Assembly (NCBI GenBank): GCA_000004695.1
Contig: CM000151.3
Span: 7,840,001-7,904,000 of the forward strand
Length of the DNA: 64,000 nt
Direction of reading: 5' to 3'
DNA from: Dictyostelium discoideum
Taxonomy: Eukaryota
Shown: in pieces, positions 1,865 through 46,816 of the stretch
Position numbering within the stretch: position 1 is the first letter of the stretch
Layout: each line of letters opens with the position of its first letter
Position numbers and translations under genes: made by a program
The notes under the pieces: generated by a model
Seen by the model: only the letters and a program-made list of their open reading frames with translations
Database searches by the model: none
Told to the model about the DNA's origin: nothing

Positions 1865-2619
1865 AAATAAATTTTATATGGGAAAAAAATTAAATTTTAA
1901 GGGATGTAGTAAATCCCAGTGAAAATCTTAAAATCATGGATAATCTTTTGATAAAAAAAAAAAAAAAAAAAAATTATGTAATAAATAATAGTAAAGTTTT
2001 AAAGAGTGAAAAAATAAAAATGAAAAAAAGTACCATTATTATTTTTATTTTTATTATTTTTATTTTTTTTTTTTTTTTTTATTACATCCTTGTTATCAAG
2101 ATCTATTTCAATTAAAAAAATTCTAGAATTAACTAATTTATTGTATTTTTTTTTTTTTTTTTTTTTAAATTAAAAGATTATTTAATTTTTTTTTTTTTTT
2201 ATTTGGAAATTGGTGGGTAAAAATTATCATACGACGTTGATTTTTTTTGCGATAAGGGCAACTGATCAAAATTTTTTTTTAAAATTTTATTTTATTTAAT
2301 TAAAATTTTTTTTTTTTATAATAAAAAAAAAAAATCCCTTTAGAGGGAATTTCACTCATCAATAATTTTTTTTTTTCTCACACTTAAGATTTATTATTTT
2401 TTTTTTTTAAAATTTCCCAGTCAATTTAATTATTTAAATTAAATATTTGTTTTTTTTTTTTTTGTATATTTTTATCTATATATATATATAAATTCTATAA
2501 TTAAATAAAAATAAAAATAAAAATAATAAATCTCAATTTATTTTCATTTTATTTTTTTTTTATATTTTTATCTATATTTATATATATATATATATATTTA
2601 TATATTTATATTATGGTAA

Positions 2620-3801
2620 ATGATATATAATAATAATTTAATTTTAATAATTTCCAAAATTTTAATAATTACAAGTTTTTACAAGTTGATATCAGATTCA
2701 ATAAAATGTATATTCAGAGGTATTGGTGAAATTATGTTGGCAAGTAATGGTTATACAGGTTTGTTATTTTTAGTTGGTCTTTACTTTGAAAACCCTATTA
2801 TGGCAACGGTGGCATTATCATGTACAATAATATCAACACTTACAGCGGTAATATTAAAATTTAATAAAGAGAATATAATGGAAGGGTTATATGGATTTAA
2901 TTCATCATTGATTGGATGTGCAATGGTATTTTATTTAGAATTGAATATTTATGTTATCATTGGATTTATAATGGGATCAATTGTATCCACATTGTTGATG
3001 GAATTCTTCCTAAGGAATAATTTACCAGCGTATACATTTCCATTCATTTTCACAACATGGATACTATTATGGATTCTAAGGATACCAGGAATAACCAATG
3101 CAAAGCCGCCAAGTGACATAATCGATTACCAAGTACTAATTGACTATTCAATGCCTGCGCATTCATTTGGCCAAGTTTTATTCTTGGGTGATTGTATTAG
3201 TGGGTTGTTAGTATTGATTGGTGTTTATATATGGTCGCCAATCGCTTCACTCTATGGTATAATCTCCACATTAATCAGTGCTGGTATTTCAAATTATTTC
3301 CTCAATGTATCTGGTTCCGAGGTTTCTATAGAAAGAATTCACGCTGGTCTATATGGATTCAATGCAGTTTTATGTGGAATAGCTCAAAGTGGTAAAAAAC
3401 CAATTGATGGTATTTATGTATTAATATCTTTAATAATATCAACAACATTTTATATAATGTTAGTTCAAAATAATTTTACATCGTTAACTTTTCCTTTTGT
3501 TTTATCAATGTGGTTTTGTTGTATTTTGAAATTTATTATTTCAAATTATGATAATGATAAAATAAATAATATTATTGGAAATAATGGTGGTGGTGGTGGT
3601 GGTGTAAAACAAACAAAAGTGTATAAAAATTTTAAATTTGTTTTGAAAAAAGTTTCAAAATTAAGAAATAGAAGTAAACAAAATGGGAAATTTAAAAATT
3701 CAACAACAATCAACAATAATGATGACGAAAATGAATTTGCTTTAAAAAATATAATAGTACCAACAACAAATAATAATAACATATTGTTAAATATTATTTA
3801 G
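2620..3801 (+). CDS. Urea transporter (UT/SLC14 family)-like membrane protein with an Asn-rich C-terminal tail
   Basis: 393-aa ORF, multi-pass hydrophobic. It has two internal half-repeats, each containing the UT signature 'GLYGFN(S/A)xLxG' (EGLYGFNSSLIGCAM and AGLYGFNAVLCGIA). The N-terminus 'GIGEIMLASNGYTGLLFLVGLYFENP' parallels UT-B '[30 protein letters not shown]'. The exact start is uncertain (an ATG at 2613 is followed by a stop; 2620 is taken). Confidence 0.6.
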   Translation: MIYNNNLILIISKILIITSFYKLISDSIKCIFRGIGEIMLASNGYTGLLFLVGLYFENPIMATVALSCTIISTLTAVILKFNKENIMEGLYGFNSSLIGCAMVFYLELNIYVIIGFIMGSIVSTLLMEFFLRNNLPAYTFPFIFTTWILLWILRIPGITNAKPPSDIIDYQVLIDYSMPAHSFGQVLFLGDCISGLLVLIGVYIWSPIASLYGIISTLISAGISNYFLNVSGSEVSIERIHAGLYGFNAVLCGIAQSGKKPIDGIYVLISLIISTTFYIMLVQNNFTSLTFPFVLSMWFCCILKFIISNYDNDKINNIIGNNGGGGGGVKQTKVYKNFKFVLKKVSKLRNRSKQNGKFKNSTTINNNDDENEFALKNIIVPTTNNNNILLNII

Positions 3802-4508
3802 TTTTAAAATAATAAAAATCTAAAAATAAATTCTAAAAAATAAAAATAAAAAAAAAAAAAAAAAAAAAAATTAAATTATTATAATTTGATCAGTTGAATT
3901 ATCTTAAAAAATAAAAATAAAAAAAATAAAAAAAAATTGGAAAATAAAAAAAAAAATCTAATCAAACTTTTTTTTTTGAAAATTCGTATTTTTTTTTTTT
4001 TATCCCATAAAAAATCTCCTCAATGTTTGAGTATTAGTGGAAAAGCTATATTATTTAAACAAGTCACAGTTTGGATCTTGCTATGCTTCCTATCCTGGTG
4101 GCCAACAAAAACAGCCTTGGTGTGTTTTTGTGTATAAAATAGTAAAGTAGAAAGTTCAGTGATGGGCAATGACTTGTTGGTTTCTTACAGACATATCTCA
4201 ATCATCACAGGTACAATCCACCAAAATTAAATTAAAAAAATAAACAAAAATAAAGGCATAGATTTTTATTTTTTTTAATATCTATCTACTTTAATCCTAT
4301 CATTTTACTTTCCAAAGAAAGAAAAAAAAAAAGAAAAAAAAAAGAAAAAAAATAATTTAAACTAATAAATAAAAAAGAGATAACTTTTAAAATTCTAAAA
4401 AAAAAAAAAGTGCACAGATTTTTTTTTTAAAAAAAAAGATAAAATGAATTTATAAATAAATAAAAACAATTTTAAAATTTTAATATATATATACAAAAGT
4501 TTGATTTA

Positions 4509-4979
4509 TTATTTTAAATTAAAATCCTCAGAATCATCAATAGCAGATGACATTGTTGTAGAGGTATGAAAAGAGTTATTATTATTATTATTATTGTTAT
4601 TATTTTGATTTACTTGTGTTAGTGTTGGTGTAGTTATGTTATTTGGTGTTTGATTTGTTGGTGAAGAAATAGATGGGGTAGTATTTGTTGTCGTTGTTGC
4701 TGTTGTATTTGTGGTAGTAGTAGTGGGATTATTAAATATTAAAGATTGTGTCCCTTTATAAATTTTTAAAAGTGTATCAATTCTTGGTATTAATTCTTCA
4801 AATGCTAAAACCATTTTATTTTTACCTTCAACTATGAATGCCATGTAAAAGATAACATTATGCTTTGTAATACCTTCATTAATTACAATTTGCTCAATCT
4901 TTGATTTCTCTATAAATTCCACAACTGTTGATGGTCTTAAAAAATATTTTCTTTTTAATTGAACTCCTATCTCTCTCAT
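4509..4979 (-). CDS. Hypothetical small protein (alpha/beta N-domain plus Thr/Asn-rich tail); a 5' exon is possible
   Basis: 156-aa ORF with Dictyostelium codon usage. A 'ttcag' acceptor-like site lies immediately upstream of the ATG, so the true start may be in an upstream exon. I see no recognisable family. Confidence 0.3.
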   Translation of the reverse strand: MREIGVQLKRKYFLRPSTVVEFIEKSKIEQIVINEGITKHNVIFYMAFIVEGKNKMVLAFEELIPRIDTLLKIYKGTQSLIFNNPTTTTTNTTATTTTNTTPSISSPTNQTPNNITTPTLTQVNQNNNNNNNNNNSFHTSTTMSSAIDDSEDFNLK

Positions 4980-5027
4980 TACAATTAATGATTCTGAATA
5001 AAAAATAAAAAAAATAAAAAAAATTAA

Positions 5028-5090
<63 letters not shown>

Positions 5091-31754: not shown

Positions 31755-31837
31755 TGCAAGAGGCGAGATTCGAACTCGCGAACCGAATGGATGAGATCTT
31801 AAGTCACACGGATTTAACCAGACTTTCCTACCCTTGC
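31755..31837 (-). tRNA. tRNA-Leu (anticodon UAA), type II
   Basis: Minus-strand cloverleaf. Acceptor GCAAGGG/CTCTTGC (one G-U pair). D-stem GGA/TCC with a GGTTAAA loop. Anticodon loop CTTAAGA (T33, TAA at 34-36, A37). Long variable arm. T-arm GCGAG-TTCGAAT-CTCGC. Discriminator A. The anticodon stem has one T-T mismatch and the variable-arm pairing is weak, so function is not guaranteed. Confidence 0.65.
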
Positions 31838-31885
31838 TTTGATGTTTTTAGTGTAATAAAGCTTGTTAGCTTTATAAATATATAT

Positions 31886-32188
31886 CGCGTAGCAAAATTT
31901 TCAAAAAAAAAGCAAAAAATAATCAGATCGAAAAAAACAAACAACAACAACAATCTCTTTTTTTGATTATTTCATTTTTCATATAAAAAAGACTTAAAAA
32001 ACAAATAAATAAATAAATAAACTATTTTAAAAAGCCATCTTTTTACTTTATTGTAATTTATTATTTGTTTCGTTTTGAGAATTTTGCGTAGCAAAATTTT
32101 CAAAAAAAAAGCAAAAAATAATCAGATCGAAAAAAACAAACAACAACAATCTCTTTTTTTGATTATTTCATTTTTCATATAAAAAAGA

Positions 32189-32224
<36 letters not shown>

Positions 32225-33931
32225 GGAACCCAAGTTAATCAGAAAATTTCCAGATTTTTAACTTTTTAAAGAAAAATAAAAAAAATAGAAAGAAAATAAG
32301 ATGAAAATCACAAACAACACCACAAATATTAAGCAACACAAATGCCTACAAAAAATAAGCGAAATTGTGGATAAAACTCAATTAAAAAAAAAACAATTCA
32401 AATACGTCATAAACATCAATCACGAACCAGACGATAAAATAAAAAAAGATTTAGAAAAAAGTTTGGACAAAAAAGATGTTTTAATCAAAAGTAATAATAC
32501 ATTCAAAATTCTCACAGACAGTATTAGTACAGTAATCTATTTTGTAAATATGTTTGATGCAGAATTAAAAGGACAATTTATAACCACTATAAGACCAAAA
32601 AATATGTATACAGATTTTGATTGGTATAAATCACTCACAGAAATAGAATGGGTAATAGAAAATGAAGGATGTAAACTAATTAAATTAGAAATTAAAGGCG
32701 AAACTCTAATTATCAAAACAGTGAAAAGAGTCGTAGAAGAATTTGACACTATCATTGAACTAGACAATCTAACATTAATTGGACACTCCAACAAAGGATG
32801 GAGAGATCAAACCTCATTACCAGAAAATCAAGAAGAAAACAAAAATAAAAAACAATCAGATGAACAACAACCACAATCTACATCAGAACAAATACCAAAA
32901 CAAGGAAAAAGAACAATCATTATCCCACCAATCACATCCTCATCTAATGATAAAACATTTATGGCCCTAGATGATACAGCTCAAAAGGTAATAGAAGCAT
33001 CACTAGAAAACGTAGATGAACTAACAAGAATAGAGAATGAGATCAATACACAATCGATAAACAATCAAGAAATTAAAACAAAATCAGAAAAACCTATCGA
33101 ACCACCATCTCCATACAATACACCAATAAAACAACACGGCGAAACAAAGGGACTAACAACGGAAGAAAAACTTAGAGAGGCAAATGATATCTTCGACTTC
33201 ACCAGCCCAAACACTGATGCAATAAGAAAAATAGAATTCCCACTTTCAATCCCTTCAAATCAATGGTTCTTCTCCTCTCCAATAAAACATATCATGAGTT
33301 TCAGCCCAACCTATGGTACACCATCGAAAATTATCGATTCACCAAGTAAATTGTTAAACACACCAAAAAAGAAACAACAAGACAAAACAAACAAGACCAA
33401 CAAAACACCAGTCAAACCAAAATTGGGTGAATATGGACAAAAAAGCATAAAAACAAAAATGGATGAAGATATAGACAACTTCAACAAGGAAATTCTAAAA
33501 CAAATCAATAAATCAAAAAACCCCACAAACACACAAGACCAACAACACAACGAACAAAGTAAAGATCAGTTAGAAGACAAAATAAACCAGAAACTTCAAA
33601 AGGTAGATAAAAATCTACCCCAAATAAAACTATAAAGAAAAACACAATAAGAATAGGTGTTTGGAACATCCAAGGATCCAACACCATCCAATCTGCCAGC
33701 ATAATAAACACCGTTTTAGACAACAACAAGCTGGACGCAGCACTTCTAACTGAAACAAATATAAAAACAAATAAAATTTACTCAATAAATCAACAATATA
33801 AAAACAAAATAACACACCACGCACCAATTGATAAAACAGGACAAGGGGTGTCACAAATCATCATCAACACCCGCAATAGAACTTCCTAAACATCTCAAAA
33901 AATACAATAATTCACTCAGTACTTTCTATAA

Positions 33932-33989
<58 letters not shown>

Positions 33990-34311
33990 CAAGTTAATCA
34001 GAAAAATAAAAAAGATAGAAAGAAAATAAAATGAAAATCACAAACAACACCACAAATATTAAGCAACACAAATGCCTACAAAAAATAAGCGAAATTGTGG
34101 ATAAAACTCAATTAAAAAAAAAACAATTCAAATACGTCATAAACATCAATCACGAACCAGACGATAAAATAAAAAAAGATTTAGAAAAAAGTTTGGACAA
34201 AAAAGATGTTTTAATCAAAAAGACCCTGTAAAAAAAAAAAATAAATAAAATGAGATCTAGCATCTCAAGGAGAAGCAAATAATAATTGCGTTATCCAATT
34301 CAAAAAAAAAA
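31886..34311 (+). mobile_element. TRE5-A (DRE) non-LTR retrotransposon, ORF2-deleted variant (TRE5-A.2-like), 48 bp upstream of tRNA-Leu, divergently oriented
   Basis: A-module tandem units (199-bp period) at 31886..~32200. B-module cctgggaacccaagttaatcag.. follows. Intact ORF1 is at 32301..33635. ORF2 is reduced to its first 9 and last about 20 codons (junction at 33872/33873). Then come poly(A), B-module tail + ORF1' (first 66 codons) + terminal C-module ...ttgcgttatccaattc + A10. A 15-bp TSD 'tttataaatatatat' lies at 31871..31885 and 34312..34326. The distance from the tRNA 5' end (31837) is 48 bp. Confidence 0.85.
32301..33635 (+). CDS. TRE5-A ORF1 protein (444 aa)
   Basis: Intact ORF. 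It is 98-99% identical to the ORF1 copies at 39581..40915 and 42048..43382. Confidence 0.85.
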   Translation: MKITNNTTNIKQHKCLQKISEIVDKTQLKKKQFKYVININHEPDDKIKKDLEKSLDKKDVLIKSNNTFKILTDSISTVIYFVNMFDAELKGQFITTIRPKNMYTDFDWYKSLTEIEWVIENEGCKLIKLEIKGETLIIKTVKRVVEEFDTIIELDNLTLIGHSNKGWRDQTSLPENQEENKNKKQSDEQQPQSTSEQIPKQGKRTIIIPPITSSSNDKTFMALDDTAQKVIEASLENVDELTRIENEINTQSINNQEIKTKSEKPIEPPSPYNTPIKQHGETKGLTTEEKLREANDIFDFTSPNTDAIRKIEFPLSIPSNQWFFSSPIKHIMSFSPTYGTPSKIIDSPSKLLNTPKKKQQDKTNKTNKTPVKPKLGEYGQKSIKTKMDEDIDNFNKEILKQINKSKNPTNTQDQQHNEQSKDQLEDKINQKLQKVDKNLPQIKL

Positions 34312-34326
34312 TTTATAAATATATAT

Positions 34327-34560
34327 AATTAATAATTATATAATTGAATAATACTTTGTTATCTTTATTTAATATTAGTTTATATTTATAATATTCAATA
34401 TTGTTTATAAAATTATTCTTTAGTATTTATATTATTTATAATGAGTTGACAGTATTATTATTATTATTATTATTATATTATTTAAATGTGTGTCAACTAT
34501 AATTAGTAATGTAATATGCATATTTAATATCTATTAATTTTATAGAGTAACTTTATTACA
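34327..34560 (-). repeat. 3' LTR of the DGLT-A-like element (major part; its first 34 bp lie at 31852..31885, displaced by the TRE5-A.2 insertion)
   Basis: Sequence identity with 36683..36916. Its continuity with 31852..31885 is established by the 15-bp TRE5 TSD 'tttataaatatatat' at 31871..31885 and 34312..34326. Confidence 0.8.
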
Positions 34561-34572
34561 TATCCCCCCCTT

Positions 34573-35183
34573 TTAGTTGAAAATTTTTTTCAATCTTTCA
34601 ATATTGACTACTTTATGATCTCTAAGATTACCCATATCTAATTTGAATGTAACATCGCTAACTTTTTCTTGAACTTTAAAAGGACCTCTCCAAGGTTTAT
34701 AGAATTTCTTTGGACCAATAGAAGTTTGTGAATATGGTGTATGTAAATAAACAAAATCACCTGTTTGAATATTTGTTGGACGACGACCTTTATCATAATT
34801 TGTTTTTTGTAATTCTTGAGCTTTATCGAGATTATTCTTTGTAAACCAAAAGGCACGTTTAAGATTATTATTTACGGATTGTGCATAATTATCAGCGAAA
34901 TCTAATCTTAGTGAATTTGTACATGGATTTCTTATTAATGGTTGAATTGAAGTTATTTGTGATTTAATTATTGAATTCTCTGTTTGATTTAATGATATTG
35001 ATTTTAATGGTAAATTTGATGTTATTGGTGAATCTATTGGTTCTTGGAATAAGAATTCTGGAATATCGTAATCTATTGGTAGTTGTTCTTCAATAGTTGG
35101 ATACGATTTGATTGATAGTATATGATGAGAATTAAAATTTTCAATTAAATGATCAGTATCTGTTAATAATTCTGATTTTGATG

Positions 35184-35217
<34 letters not shown>

Positions 35218-36469
35218 TGAATAATCAGATACTGTTTTAAATATAGTTTGTATACATGGTTGGGTTTCTTTAGATATTAATTTGGTACCAACATTGAATT
35301 CAAGATTCTTAATGATCATTTCTTTAAAATCAATTACTAAATTTAATCCAATTATTGTATCAATGCCAAATATACAATCAATTGATGTATCATTATCTTT
35401 AACAACATTAACTTTAACTCTAGCGAATGCTTTACCTAATTTAATTGTTGTGTTACTTATTCCAATGATTTTGATTTCATTATTTGATGCTGATTTAACA
35501 GAATATTGTTTATTTTCAATCTTTAATTTTAACTTTTTAGCAATACTTTCCCAAACAATAGTAAGTGATGAACCAGTATCAATCAAACCTCTAACATTTT
35601 TATTATTTATTAATAAAGCTGCATTCATACTATCTATTCCGATTGAATTAATTGTACTATTATTGACCATTGTAATTGAATTAGTTCTATTATTGTAATT
35701 GTTATTATTATTTTTATCTTTTGACCAACACTCTTGAATTACATGACCTTTCTTTTTGCAGTATTTACAAAATTTTGTGATTGAATTTACTTGATTTTGT
35801 GGTGCTTTATAAGGGGATGATTGTGGTGAATATGTTTGATTTTTATAAATTGGAGTTGCTAATACTTCAGTTTCAGTAGATTGTTCAGTTTGAGATGTAA
35901 CGTACTGTGGTGATGTTGTATAACCAGATCTAGAACCAAGATACTTTTGAGTTCCAAATTCTTGTAATGTTTTTGCAACCAATTGACCAGTATACATTGA
36001 TCTACCTCTCATACGAATTGAACCATCTTCACAAGACTTTGCAATATCTATTGCTCTTTTTAATGATTTTGGTGCACATTTTGTAATTTCAATACCCAAT
36101 TCAGTACCAACAGCTGAATAAAACAATTGTATTTTAAACTTTTCTGAAATATCAACTGCTGAACATTTTGATAGAAATTTACCAATTAATATATCTAATG
36201 TATTGTATTTATATTCTCCCAACTTTGTTAATTCTGTTAAATCATCACTATCACCAATATCAAAAGCATCTTTAAGATCTTCAATTATCTCCATTGCTGT
36301 TAAGTCTGTATCCAATGTTGCGGCATATTCCAATGCATTGTTTCTTAGTTTTCTAATAATATCAGCTTTCGATATTTCCTCGCCATGAATTAGTAAGAGT
36401 AAGTGTTTGAATTTACGAAATGATAAACCTTTTCCATCGCCCGAAAAAATTATGTTTTCATTATTATTC

Positions 36470-36471
<2 letters not shown>
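34573..36471 (-). CDS. Gag-protease-(delta RT/RNaseH/IN core)-integrase C-terminus fusion ORF of the deleted DGLT-A-like element (632 aa)
   Basis: CCHC knuckle 'KFCKYCKKKGHVIQEC'. Protease active site 'LIDTGSS'. The C-terminus 'KAQELQKTNYDKGRRPTNIQTGDFVYLHT...KKFYKPWRGPFKVQEKVSDVTFKLDMGNLRDHKVVNIERLKK' is typical of a Ty3/gypsy integrase C-terminal domain. No RT (YxDD) or RNase H is present, yet the frame is retained across the deletion. Confidence 0.7.
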
Positions 36472-36539
<68 letters not shown>

Positions 36540-36635
36540 TATTAAATTAAATTTAATCTAATGTACAATTTTAATTGATTGAATAATTTGATAACTTTAT
36601 ATTTATAGTATATTTTTTTTTTTTTTTTTGAAAGA

Positions 36636-36646
36636 CGATGTCGCCA
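36636..36646 (-). other. Primer-binding site of the LTR element, complementary to the 3' end (+CCA) of tRNA-Ser(AGA)
   Basis: The plus strand reads cgatgtcgcca, which is the acceptor 3' strand CGATGTC + discriminator G + CCA of the tRNA-Ser gene at 38701..38782. On the element's sense (minus) strand this is TGGCGACATCG, 2 nt after the LTR end ...TTACA. Confidence 0.75.
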
Positions 36647-36648
36647 AA

Positions 36649-36916
36649 TGTAATAAAGCTTGTTAGCTTTATAAATATATATAATTAATAATTATATAAT
36701 TGAATAATACTTTGTTATCTTTATTTAATATTAGTTTATATTTATAATATTCAATATTGTTTATAAAATTATTCTTTAGTATTTATATTATTTATAATGA
36801 GTTGACAGTATTATTATTATTATTATTATTATATTATTTAAATGTGTGTCAACTATAATTAGTAATGTAATATGCATATTTAATATCTATTAATTTTATA
36901 GAGTAACTTTATTACA
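36649..36916 (-). repeat. 5' LTR of the DGLT-A-like element (268 bp)
   Basis: Near-identical to 34327..34560 plus 31852..31885. Confidence 0.8.
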
Positions 36917-36949
36917 TTAGAATTAATTTACGTAATAAAACCTCTTTTG

Positions 36950-37070
36950 TAAGTTTGGAAACAAATCATCCCGTTCGATCTGATAAGTAAATCGACCTCA
37001 GGCCTTCCAAGTACTCTGGTTGGAGACAACAGGGGAACATAGGGTGCTGTATACTTTATTTACTCCGATT

Positions 37071-37104
<34 letters not shown>
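36950..37104 (+). pseudogene. 5'-truncated 5S rRNA sequence fused to a TRE5-B/C-type 3' terminus + A32 (chimeric retropseudogene)
   Basis: About 108 nt, taagtttggaaacaaatcatcccgttcgatctgataagtaaatcgacctcaggccttccaagtactctggttggagacaacaggggaacatagggtgctgtatactt. It carries the universal 5S helix IV/V features GTACT.GG.TGGAGAC and GGGAA.A.GGGTGCTGTA. It is directly followed by 'atttactccgattc' + A32. Compare the 3' tail 'gcgttactccattc'+An of the TRE5-like fragment ending at about 38155. It is flanked by aacctcttttg at 36939..36949 and 37103..37113. Confidence 0.65.
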
Positions 37105-37115: not shown

Positions 37116-37199
37116 GACCCTGTAAAAAAAAAAAAAAAATAAAATAAAATGAGATCTAGAATCTCAAGGACAAGCAAATAATAATTGCGTTATCCAATT

Positions 37200-37231
<32 letters not shown>
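37116..37231 (+). mobile_element. Extreme 5'-truncated TRE5-A copy (terminal C-module only, about 85 nt + A31)
   Basis: tgaccctgt-A16-taaaataaaatgagatctagaatctcaaggacaagcaaataataattgcgttatccaattc + A31. This matches the 3' end of every TRE5-A copy in the window. It is flanked by cctcttttgca at 37105..37115 and 37232..37242. Confidence 0.7.
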
Positions 37232-37234
<3 letters not shown>

Positions 37235-37496
37235 CTTTTGCATTTATTACAATTATCTTAAATTTATGTCAAATAATATTTCAAATTAATAATTAATTAA
37301 TTTATTATAAATATAAAAAAATTATTTAATTTTAATTAGGCTGTTAATTTCATTGTTAAACGATAAAATCTATTAAATAAAAATATAAATAAATAAATTA
37401 ATATATAAAGTGTTTTAAAGATTATTAAATATAAAATAAAGATTAAATTTTAAATATAAATAAAAACTATAATATTTGTAAAATAATAATTACAAA

Positions 37497-38700: not shown

Positions 38701-38782
38701 CGACATCGGCAGGGTTCGAACCTGCGCCCCCGAAGGGATCTGATTTCTAGTCAGACGCATTAGACCACTTTGCTACGATGTC
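38701..38782 (-). tRNA. tRNA-Ser (anticodon AGA), type II
   Basis: Acceptor GACATCG/CGATGTC. D-stem GCA/TGC. Perfect anticodon stem TCTGA/TCAGA with loop CTAGAAA (AGA at 34-36). Long variable arm TCCCTTCGGGGGC (CCC-TTCG-GGG hairpin). T-arm GCAGG-TTCGAAC-CCTGC. Discriminator G. Confidence 0.85.
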
Positions 38783-39505: not shown

Positions 39506-41211
39506 GGAACCAAGTTAATTAGAAAATTTCCAGATTTTTAACTTTTTAAAGAAAAATAAAAAAGATAGAAAGAAAATAAAATGAAAATCACAAACAACAC
39601 CACAAATATTAAGCAACACAAATGCCTACAAAAAATAAGCGAAATTGTGGATAAAACTCAATTAAAAAAAAAACAATTCAAATACGTCATAAACATCAAT
39701 CACGAACCAGACGATAAAATAAAAAAAGATTTAGAAAAAAGTTTGGACAAAAAAGATGTTTTAATCAAAAGTAATAATACATTCAAAATTCTCACAGACA
39801 GTATTAGTACAGTAATCTATTTTGTAAATATGTTTGATGCAGAATTAAAAGGACAATTTATAACCACTATAAGACCAAAAAATATGTATACAGATTTTGA
39901 TTGGTATAAATCACTCACAGAAATAGAATGGGTAATAGAAAATGAAGGATGTAAACTAATTAAATCAGAAATTAAAGGCGAAACTCTAATTATCAAAACA
40001 GTGAAAAGAGTCGTAGAAGAATTTGACACTATCATTGAACTAGACAATCTAACATTAATTGGACACTCCAACAAAGGATGGAGAGATCAAACCTCATTAC
40101 CAGAAAATCAAGAAGAAAACAAAAATAAAAAACAATCAGATGAACAACAACCACAATCTACATCAGAACAAATACCAAAACAAGGAAAAAGAACAATCAT
40201 TATCCCACCAATCACATCCTCATCTAATGATAAAACATTTATGGCCCTAGATGATACAGCTCAAAAGGTAATAGAAGCATCACTAGAAAACGTAGATGAA
40301 CTAACAAGAATAGAGAATGAGATCAATACACAATCGATAAACAATCAAGAAATTAAAACAAAATCAGAAAAACCTATCGAACCACCATCTCCATACAATA
40401 CACCAATAAAACAACACGGCGAAACAAAGGGACTAACAACGGAAGAAAAACTTAGAGAAGCAAATGATATCTTCGACTTCACCAGCCCAAACACTGATGC
40501 AATAAGAAAAATAGAATTCCCACTTTCAATCCCTTCAAATCAATGGTTCTTCTCCTCTCCAATAAAACATATCATGAGTTTCAGCCCAACCTATGGTACA
40601 CCATCGAAAATTATCGATTCACCAAGTAAATTGTTAAACACACCAAAAAAGAAACAACAAGACAAAACAAACAAGACCAACAAAACACCAGTCAAACCAA
40701 AATTGGGTGAATATGGACAAAAAAGCATAAAAACAAAAATGGATGAAGATATAGACAACTTCAACAAGGAAATTCTAAAACAAATCAATAAATCAAAAAA
40801 CCCCACAAACACACAAGACCAACAACACAATGAACAAAGTAAAGATCAGTTAGAAGACAAAATAAACCAGAAACTTCAAAAGGTAGATAAAAATCTACCC
40901 CAAATAAAACTATAAAGAAAAACACAATAAGAATAGGTGTTTGGAACGTCCAAGGATCCAACACCATCCAATCTGCCAGCATAATAAACACCGTTTTAGA
41001 CAACAACAAGCTGGACGCAGCACTTCTAACTGAAACAAATATAAAAACAAATAAAATTTACTCAATAAATCAACAATATAAAAACAAAATAACACACCAC
41101 GCACCAATTGATAAAACAGGACAAGGGGTGTCACAAATCATCATCAACACCCGCAATAGAACTTCCTAAACATCTCAAAAAATACAATAATTCACTCAGT
41201 ACTTTCTATAA

Positions 41212-41267
<56 letters not shown>

Positions 41268-41594
41268 CAAGTTAATCAGAAAAATAAAAAAGATAGAAAG
41301 AAAATAAAATGAAAATCACAAACAACACCACAAATATTAAGCAACACAAATGCCTACAAAAAATAAGCGAAATTGTGGATAAAACTCAATTAAAAAAAAA
41401 AAAACAATTCAAATACGTCATAAACATCAATCACGAACCAGACGATAAAATAAAAAAAGATTTAGAAAAAAGTTTGGACAAAAAAGATGTTTTAATCAAA
41501 AAGACCCTGTAAAAAAAAAAAAAAAATAAAATGAGATCTAGCATCTCAAGGAGAAGCAAATAATAATTGCGTTATCCAATTCAAAAAAAAAAAA
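38830..41594 (+). mobile_element. TRE5-A.2-like (ORF2-deleted) copy #2, 48 bp upstream of tRNA-Ser
   Basis: Same architecture and the same ORF2 deletion junction as copy #1. The A-module array has about 3.3 units (38830..~39455). ORF1 is at 39581..40915, ORF1' at 41309..41512, the C-module tail + A12 ends at 41594. The TSD 'ttgtatgaaatttaa' is at 38815..38829 and 41595..41609. The distance to the tRNA 5' end (38782) is 48 bp. Confidence 0.85.
39581..40915 (+). CDS. TRE5-A ORF1 protein (444 aa), copy #2
   Basis: Intact ORF, near-identical to 32301..33635. Confidence 0.85.
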   Translation: MKITNNTTNIKQHKCLQKISEIVDKTQLKKKQFKYVININHEPDDKIKKDLEKSLDKKDVLIKSNNTFKILTDSISTVIYFVNMFDAELKGQFITTIRPKNMYTDFDWYKSLTEIEWVIENEGCKLIKSEIKGETLIIKTVKRVVEEFDTIIELDNLTLIGHSNKGWRDQTSLPENQEENKNKKQSDEQQPQSTSEQIPKQGKRTIIIPPITSSSNDKTFMALDDTAQKVIEASLENVDELTRIENEINTQSINNQEIKTKSEKPIEPPSPYNTPIKQHGETKGLTTEEKLREANDIFDFTSPNTDAIRKIEFPLSIPSNQWFFSSPIKHIMSFSPTYGTPSKIIDSPSKLLNTPKKKQQDKTNKTNKTPVKPKLGEYGQKSIKTKMDEDIDNFNKEILKQINKSKNPTNTQDQQHNEQSKDQLEDKINQKLQKVDKNLPQIKL

Positions 41595-41904
41595 TTGTAT
41601 GAAATTTAAATTTTCAAAAAAAAGCAAAAAATAATCAGATCGAAAAAAAACAAACAACAACAACAATCTCTTTTTTTGATTATTTCATTTTTCATATAAA
41701 AAAGACTTAAAAAACAAATAAATAAATAAATAAACTATCTTAAAAAGCCATCTTTTTACTTTATTGTAATTTATTATTTGTTTCGTTTTGAGAATTTTGC
41801 GTAGCAAAATTTTCAAAAAAAAGCAAAAAATAATCAGATCGAAAAAAAACAAACAACAACAACAATCTCTTTTTTTGATTATTTCATTTTTCATATAAAA
41901 AAGA

Positions 41905-41971
<67 letters not shown>

Positions 41972-42047
41972 GGAACCCAAGTTAATCAGAAAATTTCCAG
42001 ATTTTTAACTTTTTAAAGAAAAATATAAAAAATAGAAAGAAAATAAA

Positions 42048-43382
42048 ATGAAAATCACAAACAACACCACAAATATTAAGCAACACAAATGCCTACAAAA
42101 AATAAGCGAAATTGTGGATAAAACTCAATTAAAAAAAAAACAATTCAAATACGTCATAAACATCAATCACGAACCAGACGATAAAATAAAAAAAGATTTA
42201 GAAAAAAGTTTGGACAAAAAAGATGTTTTAATCAAAAGTAATAATACATTCAAAATTCTCACAGACAGTATTAGTACAGTAATCTATTTTGTAAATATGT
42301 TCGATGCAGAATTAAAAGGACAATTTATAACCACTCTAAGACCAAAAAATATGTATACGGATTTCGATTGGTATAAATCACTCACAGAAATAGAATGGGT
42401 AATAGAAAATGAAGGATGTAAACTAATTAAATCTGAAATTAAAGGCGAAACTCTAATTATCAAAACAGTGAAAAGAGTCGTAGAAGAATATGACACTATC
42501 ATTGAACTAGACAATCTAACATTAATTGGTCACTCCAACAAAGGATGGAGAGATCAAACCTCATTACCAGAAAATCAAGAAGAAAACAAAAATAAAAAAC
42601 AATCAGATGAACAACAACCACAATCTACATCAGAACAAATACCAAAACAAGGAAAAAGAACAATCATTATCCCACCAATCACCTCCTCATCTAATGATAA
42701 AACATTTATGGCCCTAGATGATACAGCTCAAAAGGTAATAGATGCATCACTAGAAAACGTAGATGAACTAACAAGAATAGAGAATGAGATCAATACCCAA
42801 TCGATAAACAATCAAGAAATTAAAACAAAATCAGAAAAACCTATTGAACCACCATCTCCATACAATACACCAATAAAACAACACGGCGAAACAAAGAGAC
42901 TAACAACGGAAGAAAAACTTAGAGAGGTAAATGATATCTTCGACTTCACCAGCCCAAACACTGATGCAATAAGAAAAATAGAATTCCCACTTTCAATCCC
43001 TTCAAATCAATGGTTCTTCTCCTCTCCAATAAAACATATCATGAGTTTCAGCCCAACCTATGGTACACCATCGAAAATTATCGATTCACCAAGTAAATTG
43101 TTAAACACACCAAAAAACAAACAACAAGACAAAACAAACAGGACCAACAAAACACCAGTCAAACCAAAATTGGGTGAATATGGACAAAAAAGCATAAAAA
43201 CAAAAATGGATGAAGATATAGACAACTTCAACAAGGAAATTCTAAAACAAATCAGTAAATCAAAAAACCCCACAAACACACAAGACCAACAACACAACGA
43301 ACAAAGTAAAGATCAGTTAGAAGACAAAATAAACCAGAAACTTCAAAAGGTAGATAAAAATCTACCCCAAATAAAACTATAA
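42048..43382 (+). CDS. TRE5-A ORF1 protein (444 aa), copy #3
   Basis: Intact. It has a few substitutions relative to copies 1 and 2 (e.g. TTLRPKN, EEYDTI). Confidence 0.85.
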   Translation: MKITNNTTNIKQHKCLQKISEIVDKTQLKKKQFKYVININHEPDDKIKKDLEKSLDKKDVLIKSNNTFKILTDSISTVIYFVNMFDAELKGQFITTLRPKNMYTDFDWYKSLTEIEWVIENEGCKLIKSEIKGETLIIKTVKRVVEEYDTIIELDNLTLIGHSNKGWRDQTSLPENQEENKNKKQSDEQQPQSTSEQIPKQGKRTIIIPPITSSSNDKTFMALDDTAQKVIDASLENVDELTRIENEINTQSINNQEIKTKSEKPIEPPSPYNTPIKQHGETKRLTTEEKLREVNDIFDFTSPNTDAIRKIEFPLSIPSNQWFFSSPIKHIMSFSPTYGTPSKIIDSPSKLLNTPKNKQQDKTNRTNKTPVKPKLGEYGQKSIKTKMDEDIDNFNKEILKQISKSKNPTNTQDQQHNEQSKDQLEDKINQKLQKVDKNLPQIKL

Positions 43383-43594
43383 AGAAAAACACAATAAGAA
43401 TAGGTGTTTGGAACGTCCAAGGATCCAACACCATCCAATCTGCCAGCATAATAAACACCGTATTAGACAACAACAAGCTGGACGCAGCACTTCTAACTGA
43501 AACAAATATAAAAACAAATAAAATTTACTCAATAAATCAACAATATAAAAACAAAATAACACACCACGCACCAATTGATAAAACAGGACAAGGG

Positions 43595-46500
43595 GTGTCA
43601 CAAATCATCATCAACACCCAAATAAAAACAACAACAAAAACAATAAACGAAAGAATTATATCTTCCGAATGGATGATTGCAAAAACACAGATCAAATGCA
43701 CAACCATTTATGCCCCAGCAAAGTCAAACGAAAGACATGAATGGTATAAGGAAAATCTCACAGAAGAAATACTACACAGCGATATTATAACTGGAGACTT
43801 CAATGTAGACTGTTCAGTGGATAATAACCTTAACAAATATATTAAAACAATCTTCGACGAATTCGAATTTACAGAAATTAAGAATGGAATCACATTTCCA
43901 AGAAACAAATCAACCATCGATAGGGTCTTTGTCTCAAAGAAGATACTCCATCTAAACCCAATAGTTACTACTAAGGAAATCAAATTAAAATCTGATCACA
44001 ACATGGTAATCATTGAATTAAAAATACCAGAATACGAGCAACAAAAGAAAGGAGAAAGACTATGGAGACAAAACCTAGAAACTCTCAAAATGAATTCAAC
44101 CAGCCTCAAAATTAATAAAACAATTAAATACTACAATAAAAAATTCGAAGAGAACACCAGCAAATGGTACAAATTAAACATTTGCGAACAATGGTTGAAA
44201 CTAAAAGATGAAATAAAGAAACTGTCAATTAATATAGAAATTAGAGAAAGCAATAAAACCAAAAACAAACTAAAAGAACTCGCAGAAAAACTCGAAACAG
44301 CCAAAGATTCAAGAGCAATCTTCCTTAAAGAAGAGATCAACAATATTCTAAAGGAACAAGTAAGAATAAAACAAGCAAACCAAACCAACACCCACATCAA
44401 CAACAAAGAAACACCATCAAAATACTTAACCAGAAGGTTAAAAGTCCAAAGAAAGACAAATGAAATCCCTCAAATTCTAGATCCAAGCAACAATTGTTTG
44501 GTAACAAAAAACGAGGATATCCTCGAAGTAGCAAGAAGATATTACGAGAACCTGTACCAGAAGAGAGAATGCAACGAAGACACTCACCACGAACTCCTAA
44601 AAACATTCAATAAAAGGATTGATCAAAAGATATTGGACGAAATTAATCAACCAATAGAAGGATATGAAATCAGACTAGGCATTGAAAAAATACAAGAAGG
44701 AAAAGCACCTGGTAAAGATGGACTCCTTCCAACATTTTACAAAAACCACATTAATGAAATTCTACCAATAATATCAAAACTATACAATCACTTCTGGAAC
44801 ACAACAATCCCAAAGGACTTCAAACAAGGGATATTGATTACTATATATAAAAACAAAGGAGACCCAAACAACCTGGATAATTATAGACCAATAACACTTC
44901 TAAATGTCGATTACAAAATCTATTCGAAAATAATCAACAATAGGATCCTGAAGTTCTTAAACAAAATAATCTCACCATTCCAAACTGGATTCGTACCAAG
45001 AAGACTACTGCACGATAACATCATCACCTTAAACTCAACAATAGAAATAATAAAACGAGAGATTAACACAAAAGAGGATATGGAACCAATCATAACATTT
45101 TATGATTTTGAAAAAGCATTCGATTCAATCTCACATAACGCCATTCTACGTACTCTTGCACATCTAAAACTACCACTCAAAATGGTCCTCACAATAATGA
45201 ACTTACTCAATGAATCAGAAACATCAGTGTACATCAATAACTCATTATCTAAAAGCTTTACATCAAAAAGAGGAACCAAACAAGGTGATCCTATCTCTCC
45301 CACTATCTTCGCATTAGTGGTTGAATGCATGGCAACTACTATAATAAATGACCGCTGCATCAATGGTGTAACCAAAGAAACCATTAAAATACTACAGTTC
45401 GCCGATGATACAGCAACAATAGCATACAACTTTATGGACCATTTCCTCATGAATGAATGGATCAAGAAGTTTTGCCAAGCAACCAGCGCAAAAATAAACC
45501 AAACCAAATGCTCGTGTATCACTTTCAAATGGAACACCAGAACGCTATACACCGTCATAAAATCAAACGAAAGGTACCTCGGCTTTGACTTCAACAATAA
45601 GGGTATCAAATCCAAAATCAATACAATCTCAGACAACATCAGAGCTAAACTAGTAACATGGAACTCAACTTCATCAACCTATATGGGCAGACTCATAATG
45701 GCAAAAACATATGCACTATCTCAGTTAACGTTCCACACTTACATCAACACCACACCACAACACAATAGTATTGAAAATAACATCGTAAAATTCGTTTTCA
45801 ACACAAAATCTAAAAACTCTCTTTCACTACAAAGAAGACAAAACAACTATATCAATGGTGGCCTAAACTTATGGAACCTGAAGACAAGAGAACTAGCACA
45901 GAAAGCATGGTTATTCGAAAGATACCTCCACCAAAGAGTAAGTAACACTCCTAGTTCATATATAAAACTGTGGGAAGAGGAACTCAAAAACAACAACAAC
46001 AACAAAACAACAACAAAACAAAATCAACTACAACTACACTGGCAATGCAAGCAAGCATGGACCCAATTAAAAACTCCACAAAATAAACAAACACACTACG
46101 AACACCTCCCAAAATTAAAAAAAATATACGAAGATATGATGACAACTCAATCTCCTGAACACAACAAATTCATACCAACTCCTGGCCAAAAAGAAATAAT
46201 GACCAAAATTAATAGCAAACACCTTCCATTTAAAGAAATCAAAAAAATAATAAACATGAAAGGTAGAGATCTATTATGGAGATACACACTGAAAGCACTA
46301 CCAAAAATATACAACATGCCATGCCAACAGTGTGGGGAAGATGAGACCTCAGAACATATATTCTTCAACTGCAAAGCCCACATCAAAAACACACAAGAAA
46401 TCTTCAACTACACCCTAACTAAGTCTGGACACACCACTCACACCTGGAATGTGAAGATTTTAAACCATCTACAAATTGCACTAGTAGCCAATTTAATAGC

Positions 46501-46816
46501 TATTATATTCGATAAAATCTGGCACAAAAGAAATAAACTCATTCACGATGAAAAAGAAATAATAATTCACAGACAACAAGTCATACGTGAACTAATTAAA
46601 ACACAAAGAGCTGCATGGGACAGGACACAAGCGGTTATAAACAAAACATTAAGAATCAAATCAAAACAACGGCCAGAAGAACAAAATAAATTAGACTCAC
46701 TAATCTCGCTAAAGCTATTACAATTTAGCAGACAATGGAACTCACCTCTTCACGCAATAGAACTTCCTAAACATCTCAAAAAATACAATAATTCACTCAG
46801 TACTTTCTATAAATAA
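43595..46816 (+). CDS. TRE5-A ORF2 protein (1073 aa): apurinic/apyrimidinic-type endonuclease + reverse transcriptase + C-terminal Cys/His motif
   Basis: The N-terminal APE-like domain reads ...ITGDFNVDCS...KSDHNMVIIEL. RT motifs include 'YRPITLLNVDYKIYSKII', 'AFDSISHNAIL' and 'LQFADDTATIA' (a FADD box = YxDD). The C-terminus 'CQQCGEDETSEHIFFNCKAH' is an HC-type zinc knuckle. The frame is intact. Confidence 0.85.
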   Translation: MSQIIINTQIKTTTKTINERIISSEWMIAKTQIKCTTIYAPAKSNERHEWYKENLTEEILHSDIITGDFNVDCSVDNNLNKYIKTIFDEFEFTEIKNGITFPRNKSTIDRVFVSKKILHLNPIVTTKEIKLKSDHNMVIIELKIPEYEQQKKGERLWRQNLETLKMNSTSLKINKTIKYYNKKFEENTSKWYKLNICEQWLKLKDEIKKLSINIEIRESNKTKNKLKELAEKLETAKDSRAIFLKEEINNILKEQVRIKQANQTNTHINNKETPSKYLTRRLKVQRKTNEIPQILDPSNNCLVTKNEDILEVARRYYENLYQKRECNEDTHHELLKTFNKRIDQKILDEINQPIEGYEIRLGIEKIQEGKAPGKDGLLPTFYKNHINEILPIISKLYNHFWNTTIPKDFKQGILITIYKNKGDPNNLDNYRPITLLNVDYKIYSKIINNRILKFLNKIISPFQTGFVPRRLLHDNIITLNSTIEIIKREINTKEDMEPIITFYDFEKAFDSISHNAILRTLAHLKLPLKMVLTIMNLLNESETSVYINNSLSKSFTSKRGTKQGDPISPTIFALVVECMATTIINDRCINGVTKETIKILQFADDTATIAYNFMDHFLMNEWIKKFCQATSAKINQTKCSCITFKWNTRTLYTVIKSNERYLGFDFNNKGIKSKINTISDNIRAKLVTWNSTSSTYMGRLIMAKTYALSQLTFHTYINTTPQHNSIENNIVKFVFNTKSKNSLSLQRRQNNYINGGLNLWNLKTRELAQKAWLFERYLHQRVSNTPSSYIKLWEEELKNNNNNKTTTKQNQLQLHWQCKQAWTQLKTPQNKQTHYEHLPKLKKIYEDMMTTQSPEHNKFIPTPGQKEIMTKINSKHLPFKEIKKIINMKGRDLLWRYTLKALPKIYNMPCQQCGEDETSEHIFFNCKAHIKNTQEIFNYTLTKSGHTTHTWNVKILNHLQIALVANLIAIIFDKIWHKRNKLIHDEKEIIIHRQQVIRELIKTQRAAWDRTQAVINKTLRIKSKQRPEEQNKLDSLISLKLLQFSRQWNSPLHAIELPKHLKKYNNSLSTFYK

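Follow-up and report, generated by a model that had tools for sequence, protein, structure and literature searches.

A 64,000-nt stretch of the Dictyostelium discoideum genome (GenBank assembly GCA_000004695.1, contig CM000151.3, positions 7,840,001 to 7,904,000 of the forward strand; "the window" below means this whole stretch) carries an internally deleted copy of the long terminal repeat (LTR) retrotransposon DGLT-A. This copy is very probably one insertion of a propagated, non-autonomous DGLT-A subfamily, designated N1, whose members measure ~2.6 kb as against 5.05 kb for the full-length element and would be mobilised in trans. The N1 ancestor underwent two in-frame internal deletions, after which the deleted form spread with its LTRs, primer-binding site (PBS), leader and polypurine tract (PPT) retained. 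The window copy landed 14 bp upstream of a tRNA-Leu(UAA) gene, is recombinant in the integrase C-terminal domain (IN-CTD) and part of gag, and was later hit by a TRE5-A element at the 48-bp position. The locus is composed of the following features, given with their positions in the window.

31755..31837, minus strand: tRNA-Leu(UAA) gene, the integration target (ARAGORN; Rfam tRNA, 49.1 bits; junction read)
31848..31851, no strand: left copy of the target-site duplication (TSD), TTAG, flanking the outer LTR end
31852..31885, minus strand: U5-end 34 nt of the 3' LTR (100% match to LTR positions 235-268; 31871..31885 is one copy of the 15-bp TRE5-A duplication)
31886..34311, plus strand: nested TRE5-A-derived insertion, younger than the DGLT-A insertion, with A-modules, open reading frame (ORF) 1 at 32301..33635, poly(A) and a mini-unit at 33988..34311
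34312..34560, minus strand: main part of the 3' LTR, 249 nt, 249/249 identical to the 5' LTR
34561..34574, minus strand: PPT AAAAGGGGGGGATA, immediately adjacent to the 3' LTR; it overlaps the ORF stop codon and is conserved in every lineage
34576..34920, minus strand: IN-CTD remnant (aa 518-632, GPF motif, SH3-like; Pfam; 90% aa identity to residues 1309-1423 of the full-length relative P0007)
34921..35271, minus strand: spacer, aa 401-517, a decayed stub preceding the reverse transcriptase (RT) region with a poly-Asn run, the first deletion junction (J1), and a remnant of the RNase H C-terminal end and of the RNase H-integrase linker (tblastn, BLASTP, collinear alignment)
35359..35613, minus strand: retropepsin-like protease domain, aa 287-371 (active site DTGS at 35569..35580)
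35662..36471, minus strand: Gag region, aa 1-270 (CX2CX4HX4C knuckle at 35728..35769)
36472..36629, minus strand: A-rich 5' untranslated leader, presumed from its position to hold packaging signals
36630..36646, minus strand: PBS TGGCGACATCGTCTTTC, 2 bp inside the 5' LTR, an exact 17-nt match to the published DGLT-A PBS
36649..36916, minus strand: 5' LTR, a complete copy of 268 bp with TG...CA ends and terminal inverted repeat TGTAATAAAG/CTTTATTACA
36917..36920, no strand: right TSD copy TTAG, flanking the outer LTR end

The single ORF of the element, of 632 aa, occupies 34573..36471 on the minus strand and is letter-for-letter identical to the product of the AX4 gene DDB_G0277283 (UniProt Q54ZT6), which is annotated as a hypothetical or Peptidase A2 domain-containing protein. 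It encodes DGLT-A Gag with its CCHC knuckle, the protease with DTGS, and the final 115 aa of integrase (IN), and contains the motifs CKYCKKKGHVIQEC, LIDTGSS and WRGPFKV. Pfam searches identified (i) weak CCHC knuckles at aa 232-263, (ii) an aspartyl, retropepsin-type protease at aa 287-371 (PF13650, E 8e-11), and (iii) an integrase C-terminal SH3-like domain at aa 571-629 (PF22938/PF24626), the last being homologous to the Ty3 IN-CTD in PDB 7q5b (E 7e-11). The same searches gave no RVT_1, RNase H, rve or chromodomain match in this ORF. The GAG region of DGLT-A has been delimited as aa 2-236 (PMC6101501). An AlphaFold2 model computed from a 5-sequence alignment had a mean predicted local distance difference test score (pLDDT) of 30.6, and was unusable for reading the fold.

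The DGLT-A copy spans 31852..36916, and measures 2624 bp once the nested insertion is removed. Its 3' LTR is split by a 2.4-kb TRE5-A insertion with a 15-bp target duplication, TTTATAAATATATAT: the part at 34312..34560 lacks the last 19 nt, and the missing end is found within the 34-nt piece at 31852..31885 (15-nt overlap, 100% match). The rejoined LTRs have TG...CA ends and are identical at 268/268 positions, and the uninterrupted stretches alone (34312..34560 versus 36668..36916) at 249/249. An initial annotation, made from the letters of the window alone, had described the LTRs as intact and indistinguishable by eye; base-by-base comparison found no divergence between them, while the intactness applies to the 5' LTR and not to the split 3' LTR. 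The 4-bp TSD TTAG directly adjoins both outer LTR ends, and the element ends 14 bp upstream of tRNA-Leu(UAA), a distance within the 13-33 bp from tRNA genes at which DGLT-A is published to insert. Published DGLT-A has an LTR of 265 bp, a consensus of 5054 bp and an ORF of 1437 aa.

With the same PBS, 83-90% aa identity to full-length DGLT-A and a site 14 bp upstream of a tRNA gene, the element is DGLT-A, as the initial annotation had supposed. It has every cis-acting and homology feature of that family and lacks what an autonomous copy needs, and is thus a non-autonomous derivative. The domain content first proposed (gag, CCHC, DTGS and an IN C-terminus with GPFKV; RT, RNase H and the IN catalytic core gone) was borne out by the ORF motifs, the Pfam results and the alignment to an intact polyprotein, and the PBS and PPT are intact, as stated there.

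Two in-frame deletions and the N1 and N2 lineages

Full-length relatives were found by an exhaustive profile search, which yielded P0007 (1423 aa) and P0164 (1455 aa), both from Dictyostelium cf. discoideum. P0007 is a gene model bridging one frameshift at locus L005 (element of 5055 bp), while P0164 is the intact single ORF of locus L011; the sizes of both elements agree with the published consensus and ORF. Aligned to P0007, the 632-aa ORF shows (i) aa 1-394 corresponding to residues 1-397 (83% identity), (ii) aa 453-488 corresponding weakly to residues 835-872, at the end of RNase H and the start of the linker (BLASTP, E 5e-5), and (iii) aa 518-632 corresponding to residues 1309-1423 with the same C-terminus (90% identity). 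At the nucleotide level the element comprises three blocks of L005, namely A (nt 1-1756), B (~3009-3174) and C (4393-5055), and tblastn placed aa 453-512 on nt 2997-3215 of the full element (E 8e-5). A conceptual P0164 product lacking aa 477-863 and 961-1342 aligns collinearly with the 632-aa ORF. For the spacer, the comparison was made through the BLAST and tblastn blocks and the protein alignment to this conceptual double-deletion product, as global DNA alignment with nearly free gaps gave meaningless mini-blocks.

The breakpoint mapping against full-length DGLT-A, proposed together with the initial annotation, thus resolves the supposed single deletion into two, of ~1161 and ~1146 nt, separated by a decayed remnant of the RNase H end and linker. 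Both are in frame, so the earlier observation that the reading frame is preserved holds for each. Deletion 1 takes the RT domain and RNase H except its last ~16 residues; deletion 2 takes most of the linker, the IN N-terminal extension, the zinc finger and the catalytic core. In the full-length element deletion 1 is bordered by a 9-nt direct repeat, GATGCATTA, and neither deleted segment has GT...AG borders, which favours template switching or recombination over splicing. The junctions lie as follows.

~35087..35100, minus strand: junction J1, within the spacer
34914..34915, minus strand: junction J2, where ...IQPxxxNxxxN is joined to SLRLDF of the IN-CTD and the equivalent of aa 961-1342 of the intact polyprotein is gone

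Further copies were reached by cluster look-ups and contig retrieval. Those of the window type, of 2.6 kb, are called N1, and a diverged sister lineage is called N2.

L002 (DDB_G0279931), N1, same assembly as the window: TSD TTTC, tRNA Ile-AAU, 14 bp
L008 (DDB_G0271456), N1, same assembly as the window: TSD ACGG, tRNA Val-AAC, 28 bp
L009 (DDB_G0276009), N1, same assembly as the window: one LTR broken by a TRE insertion
L010 (DDB_G0287455), N1, same assembly as the window: one LTR broken by a TRE insertion
L003, N2: TSD TCCG, tRNA Leu-CAA, 12 bp
L004, N2: TSD CATA, tRNA Leu-AAG, 14 bp

At least five copies in the genome of the window (the window copy, L002, L008, L009 and L010) carry both J1 and J2. 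They can be aligned over the whole 2.6 kb with ~92% identity overall and 99-100% identity through the spacer and both junctions, and they make up 5 of the ~9 non-solo DGLT-A copies reported for AX4 (total from PMC5006619). N2 has the same architecture and 74% DNA identity to N1; it was found as at least four gene models in strain ACTFIR, including L003 and L004, whose internal sequences are identical, and as P0013 and P0165 in D. cf. discoideum. The initial annotation had called for a count of copies sharing the breakpoint, and with these numbers the junction is not unique. As far as annotated gene models reveal, N1 is confined to AX4 and an AX4-type assembly, and N2 to ACTFIR and D. cf. discoideum, a distribution that fits strain-specific bursts.

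Five loci have TSDs of their own (TTAG at the window copy, TTTC, ACGG, TCCG and CATA). L009 and L010 resemble the window copy in having one LTR broken by a TRE insertion, and no tRNA gene was found within the 3-kb flanks examined at either. The copies with uninterrupted ends all differ in TSD and tRNA gene, which shows repeated integration of the deleted form along the usual DGLT-A pathway. The view, put forward in the initial annotation, of a trans-mobilised derivative rather than a decayed copy can accordingly be extended: propagation follows from the shared junctions and separate TSDs, while mobilisation in trans is the part that we infer.

J2 is the same in N1 and N2 (...IQPxxxNxxxN to SL(R/S)LDF). 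J1 is best read in the least-decayed N2 sequences, where ...YPSDKEF...ALS...QQ.I..(D/E)IP... is collinear with both sides of deletion 1; N1 has a small extra loss. In a neighbour-joining tree of gag-PR, the sequence encoding Gag and protease (PR), with the recombinant patch masked, N1 and N2 grouped apart from the RT-bearing copies L001, L005, L006 and L011 with a bootstrap value of 0.99. The distances in this region were 0.19 substitutions/site between N1 and N2, 0.165 between N1 and the RT-bearing copies, and 0.005-0.016 within N1. The shared junctions and the common gag-PR clade point to a single origin of the double deletion, which by these sequence comparisons arose once, long ago, N1 having expanded recently in the AX4-type genome. 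In L002, L008 and L010 the original stop codon is out of frame, and the ORF runs through the PPT into the LTR (...FFQLKGGDM*).

Recombination, constraint and the source of the missing enzymes

The window copy is a mosaic. When the diagnostic sites separating N1 copies from RT-bearing copies were scored along its sense strand, the following segments were distinguished.

Sense nt 42-872: N1
Sense nt 907-1084: autonomous-type at 20/25 sites
Sense nt 1095-1997: N1
Sense nt 2004-2333: autonomous-type at 72/72 sites
3' LTR: N1

In window coordinates the two foreign segments are:

34584..34913, minus strand: autonomous-type patch in the IN-CTD (72/72 diagnostic sites)
35833..36010, minus strand: second, mostly autonomous-type patch in gag (20/25 diagnostic sites)

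The IN-CTD patch is the whole block from J2 to the PPT, and is 95-99% identical to the RT/IN-bearing D. discoideum copy L006 but only 66-74% identical to the N1 copy L002. The IN-CTD has decayed in the other four N1 copies, which have lost the original stop and read on into the LTR; in L002 it retains 47% aa identity to the full-length protein. Judging from this pattern, the well-preserved IN C-terminus of the window copy is a recent acquisition from an autonomous-type DGLT-A. Possible routes are template switching between co-packaged RNAs or ectopic gene conversion; with the latter, the exact coincidence of the patch end with the homology boundary J2 would be accounted for. In either case, the patches show past contact between N1 sequences and those of autonomous-type DGLT-A.

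Selection on the ORF was estimated between N1 and N2 by the Nei-Gojobori method as omega, the ratio of nonsynonymous to synonymous divergence, with 95% bootstrap intervals.

Gag: omega 0.21 (0.14-0.32)
Protease: omega 0.22 (0.11-0.42)
Spacer: omega 1.37 (0.91-2.1)
IN-CTD: omega 0.46 (0.23-0.86)

Synonymous divergence (dS) between N1 and N2 in gag and the protease was ~0.4-0.8. An uninterrupted ORF was present in 6/7 of the 2.6-kb copies (632, 636, 642, 636, 633 and 633 aa), L009 having a frameshift, while the ORF is broken in the RT-bearing copies L001, L005 and L006. When neutral substitution at 0.34/site was simulated over the 117-codon spacer, it stayed free of stop codons in 0.4% of trials (probability 0.004). 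We read these values as suggesting that Gag and protease function has been selected for in the non-autonomous lineage, together with translation through the spacer.

It is improbable, in our estimation, that the 2.6-kb form is instead a purely cis-acting RNA of the LARD or TRIM kind, whose protein is irrelevant and whose conservation stems from RNA constraint or repeated recombination. The autonomous-type patches in gag and the IN-CTD, the decay of the N1 IN-CTD with loss of its stop, and the frameshift in L009 would all suit such an element. However, the omega of ~0.2 in gag and the protease was obtained between two lineages that are both non-autonomous, the gag-PR sequence of N1 is too deeply diverged from the RT-bearing copies for continual homogenisation, and the spacer is free of stops despite neutral amino-acid change, all of which are patterns that selection at the protein level predicts.

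Absence of propagation, with the same deletions arising repeatedly from full-length elements at a template-switch hotspot set by short repeats such as GATGCATTA, is considered most unlikely. The position of this repeat at the borders of deletion 1 and the existence of other deletion forms (e.g. L006, of 4244 bp, with identical LTRs) are in its favour. Against it, N1 copies agree with one another at 99-100% of spacer positions but share only ~65% identity with the full-length sequence there, so the spacer decayed in a lineage already carrying the deletions; moreover, N1 and N2 gag-PR form a clade of their own apart from the RT-bearing copies, and between the N1 IN-CTD and the autonomous type there is deep divergence, with 47% aa identity.

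Nor is it at all plausible that the ORF is a domesticated host gene, for instance one restricting DGLT-A. It has been called as the AX4 gene DDB_G0277283, its Gag and protease regions are under purifying selection and the ORFs are intact, but it comes with complete LTRs, PBS, PPT and TSDs and in multiple copies at different tRNA genes rather than at a conserved single-copy locus, is not present at the orthologous site of another strain, and belongs to different lineages in different strains.

There is hardly any chance that the window holds a one-off, dead deletion copy of DGLT-A with a frame left open by luck: although the literature calls all non-solo AX4 copies incomplete and the family probably inactive, this is refuted by the two junctions, shared at independent loci by five or more copies of one genome and also by a diverged sister lineage, as well as by the intact ORFs of 632-642 aa, a separate TSD and tRNA target for each copy examined in detail, and a stop-free spacer with a neutral expectation of 0.004. 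An origin from a reverse-transcribed, spliced subgenomic DGLT-A mRNA (compare the copia gag RNA) has next to no probability and is rejected: in its favour, the two lost segments lie inside the element, are similarly long (1161 and 1146 nt) and leave the frame intact, but they have no GT...AG borders, introns of 1.1 kb are atypical for Dictyostelium, and the short direct repeats at the borders suit template switching better.

A propagated, trans-mobilised N1 thus remains the preferred explanation, and it requires enzymes from elsewhere. The RNase H domain and the IN N-terminal extension (IN-NED) bind Tfc4, a subunit of TFIIIC, whereas the IN catalytic core and IN-CTD showed no binding in two-hybrid and pull-down assays (PMC6101501). 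As both Tfc4-binding regions are deleted in the N1 and N2 copies, their precise placement upstream of tRNA genes must come from helper proteins, and the suggestion in the initial annotation that the IN C-terminus is a tRNA-site targeting region is contradicted by the binding data.

An apparently intact autonomous DGLT-A was identified in D. cf. discoideum (L011, 2089..7157; ~5069 bp, a single 1455-aa ORF and identical LTRs), with TSD AAAA, 14 bp upstream of tRNA-Ile(AAU). RT/IN-bearing but defective copies, L001 and L006, occur in D. discoideum strains. L006 (2602..6845, strain ACTFIR) is a different DGLT-A deletion derivative, of 4244 bp, with ~780 bp missing from RT/RNase H (full-length nt 2608-3388). 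Its LTRs match at 255/255 positions, and it lies, with the TSD ATTT, 13 bp upstream of tRNA-Ala(AGC), so other defective DGLT-A forms have recently been mobilised too. Identical LTRs were found in the window copy, L002, L008 and L006, while the LTRs of L003 and L004 differ at 3-4 positions.

An 833-aa ORF flanks the element. The locus orthologous to the window site in strain ACTFIW (L007) was reached through a 93%-identical homologue. No DGLT-A sequence was found within 10 kb of this tRNA-Leu locus, and the sequence continues across the insertion point. In the region L007 8640..9303, the ACTFIW orthologue of tRNA-Leu(UAA) has a 7-nt T-arm deletion and was not called by ARAGORN. A 42-nt duplicate of the 5' half of tRNA-Leu and its upstream flank lies 0.5 kb away, beside LTR-like sequences starting TGTAATGAAAG. 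This arrangement points to a transposon history at that tRNA gene unlike the one in the window.

The primer for reverse transcription was sought from the PBS, whose 17-nt sequence is published (PMC5006619). Its 11-nt core, TGGCGACATCG (36636..36646), is invariant in six elements of three lineages, and the sequences diverge right after it (tctttc, actc, tctt, tctcttg). Over exactly these 11 nt the PBS is complementary to the tRNA-Ser(AGA) 3' end ...CGATGTCG-CCA, while the six other tRNA species among the seven compared match CCA alone. Tf1-like self-priming was rejected, since no PBS complement was found in any element at up to 2 mismatches. From this complementarity the DGLT-A primer is likely to be tRNA-Ser(AGA), paired through the PBS core. 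The pairing to tRNA-Ser(AGA) plus CCA given in the initial annotation therefore stands for the core and fails for the whole 17 nt. The tRNA-Ser(AGA) gene nearby was also linked there to the element; given that tRNA-Leu(UAA) is the integration target, the tRNA-Ser(AGA) gene 1.8 kb away is not, and its proximity is without mechanistic meaning.

38701..38782, minus strand: tRNA-Ser(AGA), candidate primer species in trans, with 3' end plus CCA complementary to the PBS core

Other LTR retrotransposons use PBSs in a size range that includes 11 nt. Taken together, N1 RNA would be transcribed from the LTR and packaged in DGLT-A particles; part of the Gag in these particles, and the protease that processes them, would probably come from N1 itself. 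The RNA would then be reverse-transcribed from a tRNA primer, most likely tRNA-Ser(AGA), and integrated by RT, RNase H and IN supplied in trans from an RT/IN-bearing DGLT-A. The contact of the supplied RNase H/IN-NED with Tfc4, and no product of the window copy itself, would place N1 12-28 bp upstream of tRNA genes with a 4-bp duplication.

Several points weigh against this account. Identical LTRs are weak evidence of age, the mutation rate of the species being very low. The homology of the ACTFIW empty site past the insertion point amounts to 13 nt only. The low gag-PR omega could stem from recombination with autonomous lineages, one gag patch having been seen directly in the window copy, and the spacer omega of ~1 is partly alignment noise, as the N1-N2 spacer alignment is poor (56-66% nt identity). 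The authors of PMC5006619 found no tRNA complementary to the 17-nt PBS. Finally, no intact autonomous DGLT-A has been reported in AX4 (PMC5006619, PMC5633606), so that a helper for the N1 burst has to be postulated; it may be extinct, or defective copies may complement each other.

Insertion history around the tRNA-Leu(UAA) gene

The nested TRE5-A begins exactly 48 bp upstream of tRNA-Leu(UAA), the canonical TRE5-A position being ~48 bp upstream of a tRNA gene. The local order of events is accordingly TRE5-type insertions ~48 bp from the tRNA gene, then DGLT-A at 14 bp, and then a new TRE5-A at the new 48-bp point inside the DGLT-A LTR. This last insertion is composite, with a duplicated A-module (31886.. 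and 32087..), an ORF1 of 444 aa (32301..33635) and poly(A) at 33930..33987. The mini-unit at 33988..34311 directly follows the poly(A) with no target duplication and consists of the first 63 ORF1 codons fused to a C-module tail and poly(A); template switching may have produced it.

On the far side of the DGLT-A element, older poly(A)-ended insertions have one target duplication in common. The first, at 36936..37102, contains a 5S rRNA-like sequence (36936..37055, plus strand; Rfam RF00001, 46.8 bits versus a gathering score of 38). This seems to be 5'-truncated and is followed by 16 nt and a long poly(A), with copies of ACCTCTTTTG(T/C)A as brackets at 36940 and 37103. It resembles a 5S rRNA retro-pseudogene made by the L1-like TRE5-A machinery at the ~48-bp position before the arrival of DGLT-A. 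The second poly(A)-ended insertion (37116..37243) comprises a TRE5-A C-module tail only and then a third copy of the target duplication (ACCTCTTTTGCA at 37231), which shows that the same target was used twice. Upstream of tRNA-Ser(AGA) there is a further TRE5-A cluster (39581..46816) with two 444-aa ORF1 copies (39581..40915 and 42048..43382) and a 1073-aa ORF (43595..46816), which, by its position, is probably TRE5-A ORF2.

Significance and comparison with known systems

For research into the way retrotransposons locate tRNA genes, DGLT-A is to the Amoebozoa what Ty3 is to yeast, and in the reference strain it is usually dismissed as incomplete and probably inactive. Our analysis makes over half of the "incomplete" internal AX4 copies one coherent, propagated Gag-protease lineage, marked by a single old origin, constraint on Gag and protease, recombination with autonomous-type elements and strain-specific amplification, and thereby alters the picture of how active the family has been. 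A full-text literature search found no mention of the five AX4 gene IDs, although the deleted form may have been mentioned in the original DGLT-A description (Glockner et al. 2001); the five AX4 gene models labelled "hypothetical protein / Peptidase A2" need re-annotation as ORFs of a transposon.

A bolder version of this reading, which is possible but on balance doubtful, is that the 2.6-kb form is an ancient, selectively maintained DGLT-A satellite that needs its own Gag-PR(-IN-CTD) to spread, is primed by tRNA-Ser(AGA) via the 11-nt PBS, and possibly helped the loss of autonomous DGLT-A in AX4/NC4. If so, the satellite could either add surplus Gag to shared particles or compete for the helper enzymes. 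The single ORF of DGLT-A makes Gag and Pol in a 1:1 ratio, so the supply of Gag by a satellite could amount to a division of labour; and as N1 accounts for 5 of the ~9 non-solo copies in AX4, where no full-length DGLT-A is reported, N1 may have contributed to that loss. Whether or not this bolder version holds, N1 and DGLT-A offer a case for studying LTR-element helper/parasite dynamics in a compact haploid genome. In practical terms, the small size of N1 (2.6 kb) makes it a natural chassis on which to build a marked DGLT-A retrotransposition assay, with L011 useful as the helper sequence and tRNA-Ser(AGA) as a concrete primer suggestion.

Compared with full-length DGLT-A, N1 has the same LTR (~265-268 bp, TG...CA), PBS 2 bp after the left LTR and PPT abutting the right LTR, the same CX2CX4HX4C Gag fused in frame to the protease, the GPF motif and short IN C-terminus without a chromodomain, and the same site 13-33 bp upstream of tRNA genes. 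It differs in the absence of RT, RNase H and the IN N-terminal and catalytic domains (2624 versus 5054 bp; 632 versus 1437 aa), and in its separate gag-PR clade, ~0.165 substitutions/site from RT-bearing copies. LARD and TRIM elements are non-coding, whereas a 632-aa ORF with an omega of ~0.2 in gag and the protease fills the N1 internal region.

Plant TR-GAG elements (PMC4350172) share with N1 a size below 4 kb, LTRs, PBS and PPT, a single structural-protein ORF, the lack of RT and IN, and signs of continued activity. The N1 ORF, however, is not Gag-only but also holds a protease and an IN-CTD remnant, so that N1 works like a TR-GAG without being a member of the group; it also derives demonstrably from a known autonomous partner by two mapped deletions, and is amoebozoan and tRNA-gene-targeted.

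The analogy to TRE5-A.2 drawn in the initial annotation is apt. The two have in common the host, the niche upstream of tRNA genes, a retained structural ORF, a lost enzymatic ORF and mobilisation in trans (PMC5633606), which was shown experimentally for TRE5-A.2 and is inferred for N1. TRE5-A.2, on the other hand, is a non-LTR element that uses target-primed reverse transcription, a different targeting contact and a distance of ~48 bp. Ty3 of Saccharomyces cerevisiae is, like DGLT-A, a Ty3/gypsy element that inserts upstream of tRNA genes (at ~15 bp) and has a homologous IN-CTD. It differs in having two ORFs with a frameshift, and in finding its targets through contact of IN with TFIIIB, while DGLT-A uses that of RNase H/IN-NED with Tfc4 (PMC6101501).

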